DNA from: Eledone cirrhosa
Taxonomy: Eukaryota
DNA: 64,000 bases
Direction: 5' to 3'
Assembly (NCBI GenBank): GCA_964016885.1
Contig: OZ024759.1
Location: forward strand, 18,352,001 to 18,416,000
Below are positions 4,053 to 53,646 of the stretch, piece after piece. The notes under the pieces were generated by a model, which worked only from the letters and a program-made list of their open reading frames with translations, did no database searches and was not told where the DNA came from. Each line of letters starts with the position of its first letter. Within the stretch, counting starts at the first letter, position 1. The position numbers and the translations under genes were made by a program.

Positions 4053-4250
4053 ATAGGAACGAATAAGTCCCCGACGGCTGAGCTCAAGCCGTTTCGATGG
4101 CTAATTCTGGACTAAAGAATTAGCTGTCGAAATGGCTTGAGCTCAGCCGTCGGGGTCCTACTCGTTCCTATTACCCACTCTACTACCCTAAGTATTGTGT
4201 ACTTTGGTGCGTTATGGTCCATCTGGTTCCTTACCACATTTCCTTCGTTA
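4053..4250 (+). mobile_element. Fold-back element containing the 3' half of a hammerhead (family also at 29888-30085 and 43595-43712)
   Basis: Palindrome 4053-4171 centred on aattctggactaaagaatt. The arm contains GAAA-(t/c)ggct-tgagctc-agccg-TC (stem III plus GUC). TA-flanked. Confidence 0.65.
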
Positions 4251-4364
4251 TATATATATATATATATATATATATAGTAATTATAATAAATGTGAAGACT
4301 AAAATCCGAAGCGGGCTTGATAAGGATAATATATATATCAAAATATATAAAACCATAGAGCAAA

Positions 4365-4485
4365 TATTTATTAAAATAACAGAATAAAGTTTAAGCAAAG
4401 AATCGCTGCTTTCACCCTTAAGATCCCGTTAAGGGTGAAAGCAGCAATTCTTTGCTTAAACTTTAATCTATTATTTTAATAAATA
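4365..4485. repeat. Fold-back (~55-bp arms) centred on aagatcccgttaagggtGAAA
   Basis: tatttattaaaataac...ctttcacccttaa / ttaagggtgaaag...ttttaataaata. Related sequence at 27820-27985 and 28071-28085. Confidence 0.8.
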
Positions 4486-4551
4486 CATATATATATATAT
4501 ATAAAATGGCATAGACATTACAATACAATACAATGGGAAGAAACATAATAG

Positions 4552-4595
4552 TACCACTGATGATGTTGCAGATGTGTGACGAAAGAACTTTGATA
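4552..4595 (+). ncRNA. Type I hammerhead ribozyme motif (degenerate)
   Basis: tacca CTGATGA tgttgcagatgtgtgac GAAA gaac TT tgata. Confidence 0.6.
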
Positions 4596-5160
4596 GACTA
4601 AATATATATATATATATATTTATATCTGTATTTTTAACCACTGGTCAATCAATGATAAACATTGATTGCCAAATAAATTAACTAGGGAGATATAAAAGAT
4701 ACAGAAGCGAAAACCAACCAAACAGTGAGTGTCTCCTCTTATTATTTCTGGCAATATTATAACAATATGACCCTAACCAAGTATAACAATATATATATAC
4801 AATTTTTAAATGTAAACAAAACCACCCTGGTATGTTATATGTTTGTATATAATATCATGTTTAAGCTATATCTTATGTAATTTAATTATGATGAGTTTTG
4901 ATATTAAACTTTTGATATTAAGGATGAAGTGCACGTAAATTAAAATGTAATATAGTTTCAATATATTTATTGCTCTACATGAATTCATAAATTGTATTAG
5001 GATTTCATACTTTTCTATAAAATTTTATGTAGCCCTGTGTACGTAATAAATCTCATATTTATGAGCTGTATAACTTCTTCCCCTATAATTATTTGTTTCC
5101 GTATTTGAATGCACATTACTTTATATAATATATATATATATATATATATATATATATATA

Positions 5161-5675
5161 TAAAATAAAGTTAAATAAAAGTCAAATGATTAAAATTTAG
5201 CTTCGTTTATTATTGCTATATATATTTCAGTGACAGCCATCTTTGGCTGTGACCTCTTCAGGCAGTTTGAATTAGTATGGTATAGACAAGTACATATGTT
5301 GTTTAGGTGTATAATATTGTCAATACTCTGATATGCCCAGTTCCTTGTTGGAGTCATATGACTCCAGTTCCTCAGTGAATTAACAACCCAACAAGGAACT
5401 GGGCATATCAGAGTATTGACAATATTATACACCTAAACAACATATGTACTTGTCTAAACCATACTAATTCAAATGCCTGAAGAGGTCACAGCCAAAGATG
5501 GCTGTCACTGAAATATATATAGCAGTAATAAACGAAGCTAAATTTTAATCATTTGACTTTTATTTAACTTTATTTTACACTACTCCGGAGTAACCAAACC
5601 AACCTGCGCACTTCGTTGAGTGCTCCAGCCTGCATACTGAGGTGTTGGTATACAACCAACATAAACTCAAAATCT
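5161..5675 (+). mobile_element. Large fold-back (~190-bp arms, 5161-5351 / 5388-5577) with a hammerhead in each arm plus ~100-nt tail
   Basis: Near-perfect inverted repeat. + arm 5474-5524 reads tgc CTGAAGA ggtc acagcca aaga tggctgt cact GAAA tatata TA gca, followed by AATAAA. TA tracts on both sides. Confidence 0.8.
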
Positions 5676-5719
5676 ATATATATATATATATATATATATA
5701 TATATATATATATATATAT

Positions 5720-49995: not shown

Positions 49996-50122
49996 TCTGA
50001 TGAAGGACTAGCATCCGAAACGTTAAGATCTTCTTCCTGCTATTTCAAGCATTAACTTTCCATATACTGTATTCCTTCCATATACTGTACCTATTGAGTT
50101 GTTATTTTTGTTTACCTTTTAC
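49996..50122 (+). ncRNA. Hammerhead-containing short repeat
   Basis: CTGATGA agga ctagca tcc GAAA cg TT aaga. Begins directly after (TA)n. Confidence 0.65.
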
Positions 50123-50745
50123 ATACATATATATATGCATATATATATGTATATATATGTATATATATATATATATATATATATATATATATATATATAT
50201 ATCATCACCATTTTACGTCGATTCTTCCACGCTAGCATGGGTTAGACGGGTTGTCCTGTTGTAGGAGGCAATGCCGGGTCGGATGATCATGTCTTGCTCT
50301 TACAGGAACTAATTTGGGCTGGATGCCCTTCCTAACACCAACCTCATTTACAGTGTGGACTTGGTGGTTTTTGTCATGACACCTCCACAACCACTTTGCA
50401 GTGGCAGGGGGCGTATTGTATATATATATATGTACACATATATATATATATATATCTGTGTGTGTGTGTGCATTTGTGTATGTATATGTATGTGTCCTTG
50501 TGTTTGCCTGTACTTATGCTCCATATCTTATTGGTTTGACAAGAAATTAACAGAATAAATATTCGGGGTTGATGTGATTGTCTAAATGTAACAAACCAGT
50601 AGAAACATTTTTACTGGATTGGATTCTTCTGTCTCTCTCTCTCTCTCTCTCTCTCTCTCTTTCTGTCTGTCTCTCTCTCTCTCTCACTCTCACACTCTCT
50701 CTTCCTCTCCCCTCTTCATGTATCTATCTATCTAACTATCTATCT

Positions 50746-51240
50746 GTCAAGGAGAGCGCGGTTTTCCTTTGTGTGATAGCTATGGCGAAAGAGGTTGTAT
50801 GGTGGACAAGGTTAAAAAGGGCTGAGGTCAGACACCTTTCTCTCCGGCCAACAACTGATTCTTTTTTTCAAATACCACTTTGGAAGAAGAATCAGGATGG
50901 AGAGAGAGGTGCTGTACCCCAGCAAGTTTTATGAAAGGTGGGTGAAAGTGGCGAGAATGGCCCGAGTGAATGGGCCTTCTCTCTATATCAGCCTGTAGGT
51001 TGAGGAAAAGGAGGAGGAGAGGAAAGGAGTACAAAGTCTTCGTACTCATGGAGATGAGGGTTACACATTTTTTCAGGGGTATGTGTTACCCATATGAACT
51101 GTCTCCCCCTATTGGGGAAAATCGACTAATTTTTTAAATTACATTTGTGATATTATTTTACACGTTTTTATTGTATGTAAACTTCCCCCTTTGTATTTGT
51201 CCCCTTCTTTTGTGCCCCTGTGGCTAATAAAGAAACATAT
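50746..51240 (+). mobile_element. 3' end of Tx1/L1-like LINE (frameshifted)
   Basis: Reads AVFLCVIAMAKEVVWWTRLK / GLRSDTFLSGQQLILFFKYHFGRRIRMEREVLYPSKFYERWVK. The AKxxxWxxR...FxxxW pattern is typical of L1/Tx1 ORF2 C-termini. AATAAA at the 3' end. Confidence 0.72.
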
Positions 51241-52862
51241 CTATCTGTCACTCTCTCAATCGAAAGTGGCTCTGTTCAGATCTGGAAAGGGATGGATGGG
51301 CTTTGCCAGATTTAAAATACTCAAGTCATGTGTCACTGTGGACCATTATTGCTATGGCCACCCTTACAGCTCCATCATATCACATACATATGGAAGATAG
51401 TTACCCAGAATGCCATGCAGCAGAATCAAACATAGGACCTCATGATTCTACAATCACAATATATTCATACACTTATATATATATATATATATATATATAT
51501 ATCATCATTTCATTTTACGTCCGCTTTTTTCCTGCTTGCAAGGGTGGGACAGGAATTGATCTTGGCTTGATTTCTACAGCTGGATGCCCTTCCTAACACC
51601 AACCTCATTTACAGTGAGTGCTGGGTGCTTTTTTGCCGTAGCACCTACACGACCACTTTGCAGTGGAATGATAGGGACCCCAGTCCTTATCATCTCATTT
51701 CTACAGCTGAGGAAACTGGAACAATGTGAAATAAAGTGTCTTGCTCAAGGAAACAACACATCACCCGGTCTGAGAATTGAACTCACAACCTTTCGATTGC
51801 AAGCCCAATGCTCTAACCACTAAGCCATGTGCCTCCATCTGGATTGGATTCTTCTGTCTGTCTGTCTCTCTCTCTTTCTGTCTGTCTCTCTCATTTATAT
51901 ATGCATGAACATATATATATATATATATATATATATGCTCATGCATATATAAATGTGATGTAGATTATGATAATTATGTAGGCATATATATGTGGGTGTG
52001 TCATCATCATCATTTAACGTATATATATGCACACACACATATACATATAGACATATATGGACATATATATATATATGTATATATATTACATATGTAAAAC
52101 TGTAAATTCCAATAATTATATAGGTGTATATCTGCATATGTGTCTGTATATATGTATGTATGTATATATATATATATATATATATATATATATATATAGA
52201 GAGAGAGAGAGAGAGAGAGGGGGGGGGATAAATACAATATTTAAATGGAGGAATTTACTGTGAAATATATTTAGGTGTAAATTATGTCTATCAACTTTGA
52301 AGCTGCCACTTTGAACTGAGAGGTAAAATTCTGAATTGTATTGAAAAATTATTAAATTAATATTTTATTAAATATAACAAAACAAATACACAACAAAATT
52401 ATATAAAGTATTGCTTTCTTAGCACTATTGACTTTTAGCAGTCCCTTCTTTTTTTTTTTCTACCCCCCCCCCCCCCCCATTTTTTTTCATTTGTTTCATT
52501 ATTTGAAATATTACTGCTAACTTTAATGATGGTTATGTTTCATTATTTAATTTGTAGTATTACCTTTTTGTTTTTTTTATATTTACGATATAGCTGTTAA
52601 ATTTAATAAACCGTGTGTGTGTGTGCAAATCTTTGTATCTTTGTTTCATCATCTGGAGGTTTTGAAGTTCAAAGTAATTTATAGAATGCACCTAATATTC
52701 TGGTGCATGCCTGTATGTATGTGTGTGTGTGTGTGTGTATACATGTGTGTTAATATGTATGTGAATATGTATATATGTATATATATATATATAGTAAGAA
52801 TATGAATAAAATTACTCATATATATATATATATATATATATGTGTGTATATATATATATATA

Positions 52863-53382
52863 CAGAGAAGACCCGCCTTACCTAAATACATAGTAAAACC
52901 TACTACAGCCAGTAGGCATCTCTAACAAAATACACCCCCGTCCCACCACCCCACCCCATCCACACCACCCCCTTCTATGTAAAGTTGTGTCGGTGCCACG
53001 CCATCCAGGCCGAAACAAATGAGATCGTGTAGGTGTCACGACAAAAAAACACACAGTCCACGCTGTAATGTGGCCGTGTAGGCAACACGGTAAAAACCTC
53101 CCAGTCCCACACTGTAAATGTGGTTGGTGTTAGGAAGGGCATCCAGCTGTAGAAAACCCGCCACACAGTCCACGCTGTAATGTGGCCGTGTAGGCAACAC
53201 GGTAAAAACCTCCCAGTCCCACACTGTAAATGTGGTTGGTGTTAGGAAGGGCATCCAGCTGTAGAAAACCTGCCAGACAGTCCTATGCGAGCAAGACAAT
53301 CACTCTTGCCTCAAGTGGGAATACCCCCGTCCAAACCCATGCAAGCGTGGAACACGGACGTTAAACGTTGATGATGATGATG
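52863..53382 (+). mobile_element. RTE LINE 3' end with internal ~110-bp tandem duplication
   Basis: Matches 7833-8226. cacacagtccacgctgtaatg...ctgtagaaaacc occurs twice. Confidence 0.92.
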
Positions 53383-53603
53383 TGAGTGTGTGTGTGTGTA
53401 TATATATGGGTTATTTTGTTAATATTCTTGCAACATAGATATGATGGTTCAGCAAAGTTAGTGTTTGATAGACTTCATCAGAAGGAGTAGCTATGTTGTA
53501 AGAAAATGAATAATTCAGCTTATAGCTATCCAGTTCTTTCTCTTTTGTTGTCAACTAAGATCTCTAGATCAGTGCCATATATAGGAGAGACATAAAAAAT
53601 CCA

Positions 53604-53646
53604 GTCACTGAGGAGGTCACAGAATGTGTGACGAAAGAGCTTTGAC
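53604..53646 (+). ncRNA. Hammerhead motif (family of 37687-37731)
   Basis: gtca CTGAGGA g gtcac agaatgt gtgac GAAA gagc TT tgac. Confidence 0.72.

Follow-up and report, generated by a model that had tools for sequence, protein, structure and literature searches.

Hammerhead ribozymes of Penelope-like elements in the SAC2 introns of Eledone cirrhosa, and a possible origin of their short copies

Why do the introns of a single octopod gene contain so many hammerhead ribozyme motifs, and which elements left them there? The question is raised by a 64,000-nucleotide (nt) stretch of the Eledone cirrhosa genome (assembly GCA_964016885.1, contig OZ024759.1, positions 18,352,001 to 18,416,000; the window hereafter), an AT-rich and microsatellite-rich piece of DNA in a genome of 3.0 Gb. 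An initial annotation, made from the letters alone, had described here a swarm of separate, non-autonomous Penelope-like or retrozyme-like ribozyme elements. Short, often hairpin-shaped copies have indeed been left in TA microsatellites of the SAC2 introns, as elsewhere in the genome. We consider it probable that the motifs are type I hammerheads belonging to the terminal non-coding segment of at least 15 families of Penelope-like elements (PLEs), and that many of the short copies are reverse transcripts of the front end of the element RNA. In that annotation, the type I Penelope-type hammerheads, the (TA)n targeting, the location in SAC2 introns and the link to PLE coding sequences all proved correct, but the idea of separate non-autonomous elements did not hold for most of the families traced.

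Hammerhead motifs of the window and of the genome

At all 18 sites listed at the outset, on or close to the coordinates first assigned to them (those on the minus strand mark the 3′ side of the motif), a hammerhead core is present and GAAA-type and cleavage-site elements come after it. The type I test was that of the minimal PLE motif, a core C3UGANGA9 ... G12AAA ... NUH with helices I and II and an open helix I topology, and the descriptor allows a minimal helix III, a long stem II and the cores C(U/C/A)GANGA and U(U/C)GANAA. Of about 15 complete or near-complete motifs claimed, 13 of the 18 sites pass (Table 1) and five fail, being damaged copies: GAAA is lost at 9155, stem II barely pairs at 23677 and contains mismatches at 40494, helix III has an extra A at 39338, and the 5′ strand of stem I at 49997 is replaced by a TA repeat. 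One extra match, absent from the list, has its core at 14334 on the minus strand. The reported half copies are real as well, 4053-4171 and 29970-30084 being hairpins with the 3′ half of the family K hammerhead and 4365-4485 the same for family L. The number of families is nearer 15-17 than the suggested ten.

The window gives 14 descriptor matches, versus 0.73 ± 0.89 (maximum 3) in 30 block dinucleotide shuffles and none in either the reversed or the complemented window; with a stricter descriptor, the figures are 6 and 0.025. Our earliest strict descriptor found 2 matches only, because it demanded a 3′ stem layout absent in minimal motifs. The looser descriptor was written and tuned after the sites had been seen, and the independent test is an arbitrary sample of the genome, made of 98 stretches of 10 kb (980 kb; 100 chosen, 2 of them nonexistent) at round coordinates on large contigs, which is not a formal random draw. 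This sample contains 101 matches, versus 4-13 in five shuffles and 10 when reversed; they fall in 36 sequence clusters, and about 10 of them are expected by chance. The net density of one motif per 10.7 kb corresponds to approximately 2.8x10^5 motifs genome-wide (bootstrap 2.0-3.6x10^5). The swarm is therefore not a peculiarity of the locus: the genome-wide mean is 6.6 matches per 64 kb versus 14 in the window, a mild excess (P=0.04, resampling) in a window picked for this very feature.

The surroundings described for the motifs were also recovered. AATAAA is found 30-170 nt past the core at 13 of the 18 sites and, in the arbitrary sample, within 60 nt of 37 of the 101 matches versus a background of 6.6%. 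Similarly, (TA)4 or longer lies within 250 nt of 85 of the 101 matches, versus 29%.

Helix III is perfectly palindromic in 58 of the 101 sample matches. For families B, G, J and R, the computed dimer duplex of this helix is favourable and the monomer hairpin unfavourable, whereas K has a stable helix III hairpin and is predicted to fold as a complete monomer. Since a short palindromic helix III requires a second copy, most intronic copies are predicted to be inert. For single motifs, the energy z-scores mostly do not stand out (2 of 9 below -2). In family I, core position 7 varies freely while its neighbours are near invariant. The cores themselves are diverse: 22 of the 101 sample matches are of the U3-A8 type, including family M (TTGAAAA), family R and a K-like form (TTGAGAA), and the full motif of family L in other loci shows the core CAGAAGA (U4A) with a helix III of 5-8 bp.

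Family M displays its U3-A8 core at L241:2173 and 3186. Family L combines the fixed U4A core with a full helix III at L239:5942, L241:9857 and L267:7344. A stem-loop II of 50-97 nt, apparently branched, is seen at L255:9674, L264:6996 and L266:411 and in the window at 31922, 39338 and 42534; a GAGTCAGG...CTCGAGCTG module is common to several families with a long stem-loop II.

Parent elements and a retrozyme-like passenger

As first reported, the window itself holds no autonomous PLE open reading frame (ORF) detectable by tblastn with 2, 4 and 8 PLE proteins. Elsewhere in the genome, longer copies of A, A2, B, G, J, K and L and, with weaker support, of I are joined to such an ORF. Most traced families are end fragments of autonomous PLEs, their sequence continuing unbroken into ORFs with reverse transcriptase (RT) and GIY-YIG domains, and this is where the notion of separate elements fails. 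In families B, G, J, K and L, an untranslated region (UTR) of 0.9-1.3 kb, backed by a second copy, is followed by a second, Hydra-type ORF; family I reaches its ORF via a 72% relative, and for A2 (core 4557) the link is to a relative of A at 60-63%. This traces nine of the 18 sites, as well as most half copies, to autonomous elements; F42 is linked through a 70-76% relative only, and R stands separate. Intact ORFs of 716 amino acids (aa) in K and 808 aa in G lie in tandem arrays with units of 3.53 and 3.9 kb, respectively, and UTRs of 1-1.5 kb, in which each unit's hammerhead and tail stand in front of the ORF that follows.

Both K (RWR37, DKT117, CNCPDRSIC572, CNLC670, CKH698) and G (RWT46, DKT132, CNCRIKNKC668, CNLC768, CLH796) display the motifs that define the Hydra clade, namely an RWK-like motif, DKT, CxCX5C, CxxC and CxH, no CCHH, and a GIY-YIG at the C-terminus; for family B, the comparison concerns the C-terminal part. 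Family A shows DKS57, YVDD381, a CX2-5CxxC linker (CIDKKCITC630) and, at its C-terminus, a GIY-YIG with CCHH, of which the two Cys in the GIY-YIG core and the two His were read from the translation, with a weak match to the I-TevI domain 1mk0 (E 0.27). It would be of either Neptune or Nematis type, and this assignment, like those to Hydra, is based on motifs and homologs. For one element protein, the closest relative with a name comes from Octopus vulgaris (68%). Membership in Naiad was considered and rejected, the endonuclease being C-terminal and not N-terminal, and hammerheads being present.

The insertions have the architecture typical of PLEs, with partial tandems, an inverted 5′ copy and a tail at one end only. 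As for the (TA)n target, the long end of K is directly followed by TATATATA in 43 of 67 cases, and 15 run into the next unit. Short ORF-less tandem units of the non-LTR retrozyme kind (LTR, long terminal repeat) were not found in A, B, G, J, K and L, which run into PLE ORFs and whose tandems, where seen, measure 3.5-3.9 kb. With 6-59 copies examined per family, C, D, E, H, M, N, P and 31922/39338 gave no ORF link, a small sample that does not amount to absence. Several other pairs of an ORF and a nearby hammerhead were discarded, as they proved to be different families nested in TA. In the arbitrary sample, remnants of PLE ORFs cover 29.7 of 980 kb (3%) in 20 of the 98 stretches, 18 of them with the Hydra type; a same-strand PLE ORF end lies within 1.8 kb of 9 of the 87 matches with enough flank, and 1 of 17 K insertions includes the ORF. 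Extrapolation from 17, 8 and 4 insertions in 980 kb gives about 52,000 for K, 24,000 for G and 12,000 for R.

Family R is the one case for which the description as a non-autonomous, PLE/retrozyme-like unit stands, an ORF-less tandem unit being demonstrated here and not in most traced families. Its 597-nt unit forms tandem arrays, one of about 12 kb on contig C2, with 97-100% identity (99% in the C2 array). Its insertions are flanked by TA, stop at two fixed 3′ ends and have inverted 5′ arms set head to head. The unit contains no ORF (the longest Met frame is 82 aa) and has no similarity to any autonomous element found in this genome; one 81% relative was seen. In locus L190, 4 of 5 units pass the hammerhead descriptor. 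The hammerhead has a U3-A8 core, all three of its helices form in the predicted minimum-energy structure, and the unit has a folding z of -5.4 and a GC content of 42%. A candidate ORF link in L264 and L330 was rejected, a TA run lying between and R being nested in another element.

In DNA terms, family R thus fits the definition of a non-LTR retrozyme, and it has likely been moved in trans. It resembles the animal non-LTR retrozymes described in PMC7229834 in being tandem, non-coding and strongly folded, with one type I hammerhead per unit, and in its coexistence with PLEs. Its size exceeds the 150-450 nt first described there and falls within the 51-972 nt of bioRxiv 10.64898/2026.07.22.740005. 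It differs from retrozymes by its U3-A8 core and 59-nt stem-loop II, no parent PLE having been found, and in that the marks of PLE insertion (5′ inversion, tail, TA target) are directly visible. Family R was also encountered in sequencing runs, of undefined kind, from two other organisms, as one low-depth contig each that returns on itself after 592-598 nt. An RNA circle in these organisms is not supported, as tandem DNA would give the same self-returning contig.

Fixed ends and a probable origin of the short copies

The short copies begin and stop at defined positions. Counted from the core (= 0), K has its cleavage site at +83, 3′ ends at +103 and +186 and the ATG at +274; in G the corresponding positions are +54, +97 and +191, and +240. 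Among 79 K arms, the 3′ end falls at +186 in 35 and at +103 in 29, joined to TA. The 5′ end lies within -5..+8 of one site in 62 of 74 distinct K arms (18 of 23 in the arbitrary sample), a count that leaves out loci fetched with K queries and takes the two arms of one hairpin separately. Within the same range of their own site, 5′ ends also cluster in F42 (22/34), G (9/21, or 9/10 of the arms reaching upstream of the core), M (8/15), R (7/22), C (4/11) and B (4/13). Junction letters differ from copy to copy, and the fixed site is also the starting point of a full-length K copy (L337, 1 of 30).

The start sites read TTTAGTC (K), TCCAGTA (F42), ACCAGAT (M), TACAGTT (C), CACAGTT (R) and TTCATAT (G, B). 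The peak falls on the A of YYAGT, and no K arm begins at the T behind AG. TATAAA is located 30-33 nt upstream in F42, M and C, and K carries TATTTAAA, a TATA-like variant, at -29; the background of these motifs is 1.0-1.1%. Such sites resemble the initiator and TATA consensus and their spacing. In K, the start site falls inside loop II of the hammerhead. Terminal promoters have been described in other PLEs, an internal TATA-less one in the pseudo-LTR (pLTR) of Drosophila virilis Penelope (PMC2377424), and TATA- and initiator-like motifs in the pLTR of a rotifer element (PMC3846280).

These observations lead us to the following model. Transcription would begin at the fixed 5′ point, from a promoter located in the terminal repeat. 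The protein of the element would bind its mRNA behind the tail and nick (TA)n, and reverse transcription would begin internally at the first, 5′-proximal tail of the mRNA, as in the anole element in vitro. The cDNA would run off the mRNA 5′ end after 140-360 nt, giving a stub, and a second, inverted arm from the other 3′ end would close the insertion. Full or longer copies would arise when reverse transcription starts at a later tail, in a transcript reading through into the next unit. Since the arms span the cleavage site, their templates would have been uncleaved or re-ligated. Family R, which keeps start site, hammerhead and tail in tandem, would likely be mobilised in trans by such a machinery. 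In K, the start in loop II implies that the 5′ copy would be half a ribozyme, as in the window hairpins at 4053 and 29970.

A broader version, to which we give as much credence as doubt, is that octopod PLE transposition mostly yields ‘strong-stop-like’ stubs extending from the first priming site to the capped 5′ end, that these stubs record the transcription start of each family, and that the K promoter lies in stem-loop II, so that the 5′ ribozyme copy is halved and only downstream, monomer-competent copies cleave. If true, this would be a built-in sparing of the mRNA start while tandem read-through RNA is processed, and would hint at the role of the PLE hammerhead.

A number of observations weigh against the model or against the assignments that it presupposes. 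Rfam/Infernal, proposed at the outset as a check, found nothing in the window that reached the gathering score for a hammerhead. The best 150 of 450 weak matches there included none either, and three loci chosen for their clean copies gave none at E<=5; the 2014 definition of minimal hammerheads does not require Rfam membership. The stem covariation check succeeded in part: across 27 homologs of family I, selected solely by BLAST, 95.5% of cells are paired, with 3 doubly changed helix II pairs, versus 37-53% in slid controls, most of which have no doubly changed pairs, but the covarying pair count does not exceed that of column shuffles (248 of 500), and sequence relatedness inflates the other covariation measures. 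The family I link includes 440 nt without second-copy support, RT and GIY-YIG of the PLE ORFs have sub-threshold Pfam and PDB support only, and 7 of the 18 sites (families C, D twice, E, H, 31922 and 39338) have no traced parent. As to the ends, the counts for F42, M, C and R either include loci that the family's own query had fetched or rest on low numbers, and at inversion junctions a BLAST end may be off by a few bases. The clustered starts of G, B and R have no TATA box, and the K variant was accepted post hoc, after being seen. The 5′ ends of L, D and J are dispersed (figures not de-duplicated), so that the stub route would not be general and ordinary 5′ truncation explains those families. 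Finally, start sites, cleavage and expression are predictions from DNA.

The best surviving alternative, although we regard it as unlikely, is, in line with the initial annotation, that the short copies are true non-autonomous families, comparable to short interspersed elements (SINEs) or retrozymes, in which solo terminal repeats use a promoter of their own to give short RNAs, moved in trans by a PLE protein. Fixed 5′ ends and the huge excess of short copies fit it equally well, family R proves that such passengers exist in this genome, seven sites have no traced parent among 6-59 copies each, and in a rotifer the pLTR sequences are enough to allow mobilisation in trans (PMC3846280). Yet stubs that begin at the start site have no upstream TATA, and they are deprived of the sequence behind the tail that the anole element needs as template (PMC11167929). 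Moreover, the window K stub is 97-99% identical to an intact element, with no diagnostic changes seen, and junctions vary copy by copy.

Less probable still is that a strong RNA structure produces the fixed 5′ ends, by making the RT stall or the template fold back, or that these ends derive from a splice acceptor. The K break lies in hammerhead loop II with both arms ending there, the K, F42, M, C and R sites contain a YAG, as a 3′ splice site would, and the D. virilis Penelope intron ends at helix I (PMC4209133). However, the break precedes the hammerhead by 40-120 nt in G, B, M and C, and TATA is at the canonical distance in four families. A splice acceptor also predicts starts behind AG, where K has none, whereas the observed peak includes AG, and no common upstream exon is found at the junctions.

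That the host keeps intronic hammerheads to cut or regulate SAC2 pre-mRNA is very improbable, for despite 7 sense motifs in the pre-mRNA, near-identical G copies (32704 and 49553) that could in principle pair, and conserved intronic hammerheads in amniotes (cited in PMC7229834), there is no strand bias (7:7), the density is near the genome mean, the copies are young or decaying mobile-element pieces with 5 of 18 motifs damaged, and the monomer helix III is unfavourable.

The SAC2 locus and relation to known systems

The assignment of the locus to SAC2 is confirmed by five plus-strand exons that match Octopus bimaculoides SAC2 (INPP5F), and every listed motif is intronic. The 14 descriptor-passing hammerheads are spread over three SAC2 introns, and their equal distribution between strands, together with the dependence on dimers, suggests that the SAC2 copies are inert passengers, the numbers being small. 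For SAC2 itself nothing special is indicated, and the locus seems ordinary. A second hSac2-domain locus lies on another contig (C3:45632792-45632971, L335), likely reflecting a paralog family; the genome-wide hSac2 search gave this locus and not the short exons of the SAC2 gene in the window.

Table 1. SAC2 exons and hammerhead-bearing PLE copies in the window (pass or fail refers to the type I descriptor)
Feature	Position	Strand	Descriptor	Remarks
SAC2 (INPP5F) exon, truncated by window start	1..165	+		98% to SAC2 protein P0241 aa 155-209
SAC2 exon	3651..3722	+		100% to P0241 aa 210-233
Family K (Hydra PLE) stub hairpin	4053..4254	both		long arm + 4116-4254 (+48..+186 from core), short inverted arm 4053-4116; hammerhead 3′ half only
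Family L (Hydra PLE) hairpin, half hammerhead	4364..4503	both		sequence comparison
Family A2 end fragment with tail, core 4557	4539..4799	+	pass	ORF upstream in L105, L264
Family B (Hydra PLE) hairpin, two hammerheads, cores 5261- and 5477+	5161..5711	both	pass, pass	ORF 1.15-1.2 kb upstream in L039, L054
Family C hairpin, core 5913+ (CCGAAGA)	5717..6078	both	pass	no parent ORF traced
Family P degenerate hammerhead, core 8340	8326..8400	+		no parent traced
SAC2 exon, hSac2 domain	8594..8667	+		protein match; AG/GT splice borders read from sequence
Family D fragment, core 9155	9097..9275	+	fail	GAAA mutated; no parent traced
Family N fragment, core 14334	14090..14534	-	pass	9-bp helix III; no parent traced
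Family E fragment, core 23677	23669..23790	+	fail	weak stem II; no parent traced
Family M stub, decayed core	24960..25193	+		begins at the family's fixed 5′ site; sequence comparison
Family L half copy	27883..27976	-		not in initial annotation; sequence comparison
Family K stub hairpin (+43..+186 and +46..+103)	29883..30088	both		97-99% to intact element
Long-stem-II hammerhead, core 31922	31791..31945	-	pass	no parent traced
Family G (Hydra PLE) stub hairpin, core 32704+	32478..32801	both	pass	direct arm begins at fixed site (-71)
Family A (Neptune/Nematis-type PLE) hairpin, core 37726-	37525..38005	both	pass	sequence comparison
Family H fragment, core 38329	38062..38382	-	pass	no parent traced
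Family M relative, decayed core	38422..38622	-		sequence comparison
Long-stem-II hammerhead, core 39338	39201..39360	-	fail	helix III with one extra A; relative of the 31922 family; no parent traced
Family R, 0.86 of 597-nt ORF-less tandem unit, core 39753	39594..40113	-	pass	U3-A8 type core TTGATAA, 59-nt stem-loop II
Family I fragment, core 40494	40388..41027	-	fail	72% to UTR of Hydra-type element in L245
Family J fragment, core 41490 (CCGATGA)	41326..41576	+	pass	Hydra-type ORF upstream in L215
SAC2 exon, 3′ end approximate	41657..41813	+		protein match
Family F42 stub, core 42534, 80-nt stem-loop II	42375..42562	-	pass	begins at fixed site 5-6 nt before core; preceded by inverted piece of its tail
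Family K old half copy	43590..43722	-		not in initial annotation; sequence comparison
Family C half copy	44031..44231	+		not in initial annotation; sequence comparison
Family G stub, core 49553	49484..49660	+	pass	begins at fixed site (-70)
Family D fragment, core 49997	49996..50136	+	fail	stem I 5′ strand lost; sequence comparison
Family A subfamily fragment, core 53608, 3′ end approximate	53601..53700	+	pass	sequence comparison
SAC2 exon	56328..56414	+		protein match

Other repeats share these introns. Large minisatellite arrays occupy 192-1319, 1584-2052, 2189-3532, 16573-20851, 22371-22732, 33355-34557 and 45331-46280, with units of 94, 78, 79, 93, 20, 48 and 90 nt, respectively. A 5′-truncated long interspersed element (LINE) of RTE type lies at 6631-8225 (+), with RT (PF00078), a PHD-like Cys-rich insert and a (GAT)n tail, and sits in TA; its frame 6579-7868 (+) is still open over 429 codons. 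A second, 98% identical copy is found at 20894-22057 with a perfect 223-nt inverted arm, and more 3′ pieces at 52908-53382. A tRNA-related SINE family occurs at 17 places in the window (e.g. 6286-6435, 23416-23565, 37079-37228, 51683-51832), its copies up to 99% identical, one of them containing a weak Rfam tRNA call (51770-51827). A second SINE-like family of about 190 nt occurs at 14 places (e.g. 9411-9600, 15715-15905, 53789-53973, 59544-59732). Short TA-adjacent hairpins with no hammerhead core are present at 3951-4048, 8961-9071, 41032-41159 and 54361-54478; the first resembles the F42 3′ end, and such hairpins are probably stubs of other PLE families.

Minimal hammerheads in the pLTRs of metazoan PLEs, at about 2,000-9,000 per genome, were described by Cervera and de la Pena in 2014 (PMC4209133). 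The motifs presented here share with them the type I topology, the long helix II with an extra base after the core, the short palindromic helix III and the U3-A8 variant; in both cases there are many unrelated families, mostly single motifs from truncated elements, and opposite-strand pairs 100-700 bp apart. They differ in number (about 2.8x10^5 here, by another descriptor, so that the two figures are not like for like), in a stem-loop II reaching 50-97 nt in many families, in the U4C and U4A cores, and in K, L and N, whose full helix III is predicted to fold as a monomer.

The Hydra clade was defined by Craig et al. 2021 (PMC8557442) with ‘a small number’ of families, one in octopus; Hydra-1_Obim of O. 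bimaculoides combines a (TA)n preference with a hammerhead (supplement of PMC8557442). The Eledone elements agree with this clade in RW(K/R/T), DKT, CxCX5C, CxxC and CxH, the missing CCHH, the C-terminal GIY-YIG, the 3′ hammerhead and the (TA)n targets, and depart from its published description in comprising several young families with intact ORFs and 3.5-3.9 kb tandem arrays. For the anole Poseidon element PAc, internal initiation was reported in vitro and the role of the hammerhead left unexplained (Frangieh et al. 2024, PMC11167929). PAc and the octopod elements have in common a pair of fixed 3′ ends (tail) that lie downstream of the hammerhead, in the leader or ORF start, AT-rich targets, and copies that span the cleavage site, i.e. 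uncleaved templates. The PAc study, as covered here, describes neither a fixed 5′ end nor start-to-tail stubs as the main genomic product; in K and G, moreover, both 3′ ends precede the ATG.

Retrozymes, of which up to 120,000 copies are given for axolotl (PMC7229834), have been argued to be PLE derivatives, in a study whose stated sample does not include cephalopods (bioRxiv 10.64898/2026.07.22.740005). In a repeat annotation of O. vulgaris from 2026, 31 Penelope-like families are given as recently active and, in the sections consulted, ribozymes are not mentioned (PMC13282606). Hammerheads in PLEs, Hydra elements in octopus and the retrozyme-Penelope link are therefore already in print. In the literature covered, we found no cephalopod hammerhead census and no start-site stub model, parts of which Repbase, Dfam and supplements may hold. 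What is new here is the scale, the fixed start of short copies in several families, with initiator-like motifs (TATA-like ones in four families), and the K start in loop II.

The genome-wide pattern and the stub mechanism are, in our view, worth follow-up. An octopod genome would carry about one hammerhead motif per 11 kb, invisible to Rfam, and the many intronic hairpins could form double-stranded RNA, in a group of animals known for heavy RNA editing. PLE movement and hammerhead function are open questions, and the base-precise ends, the young intact elements K and G and the passenger R make both of them testable.

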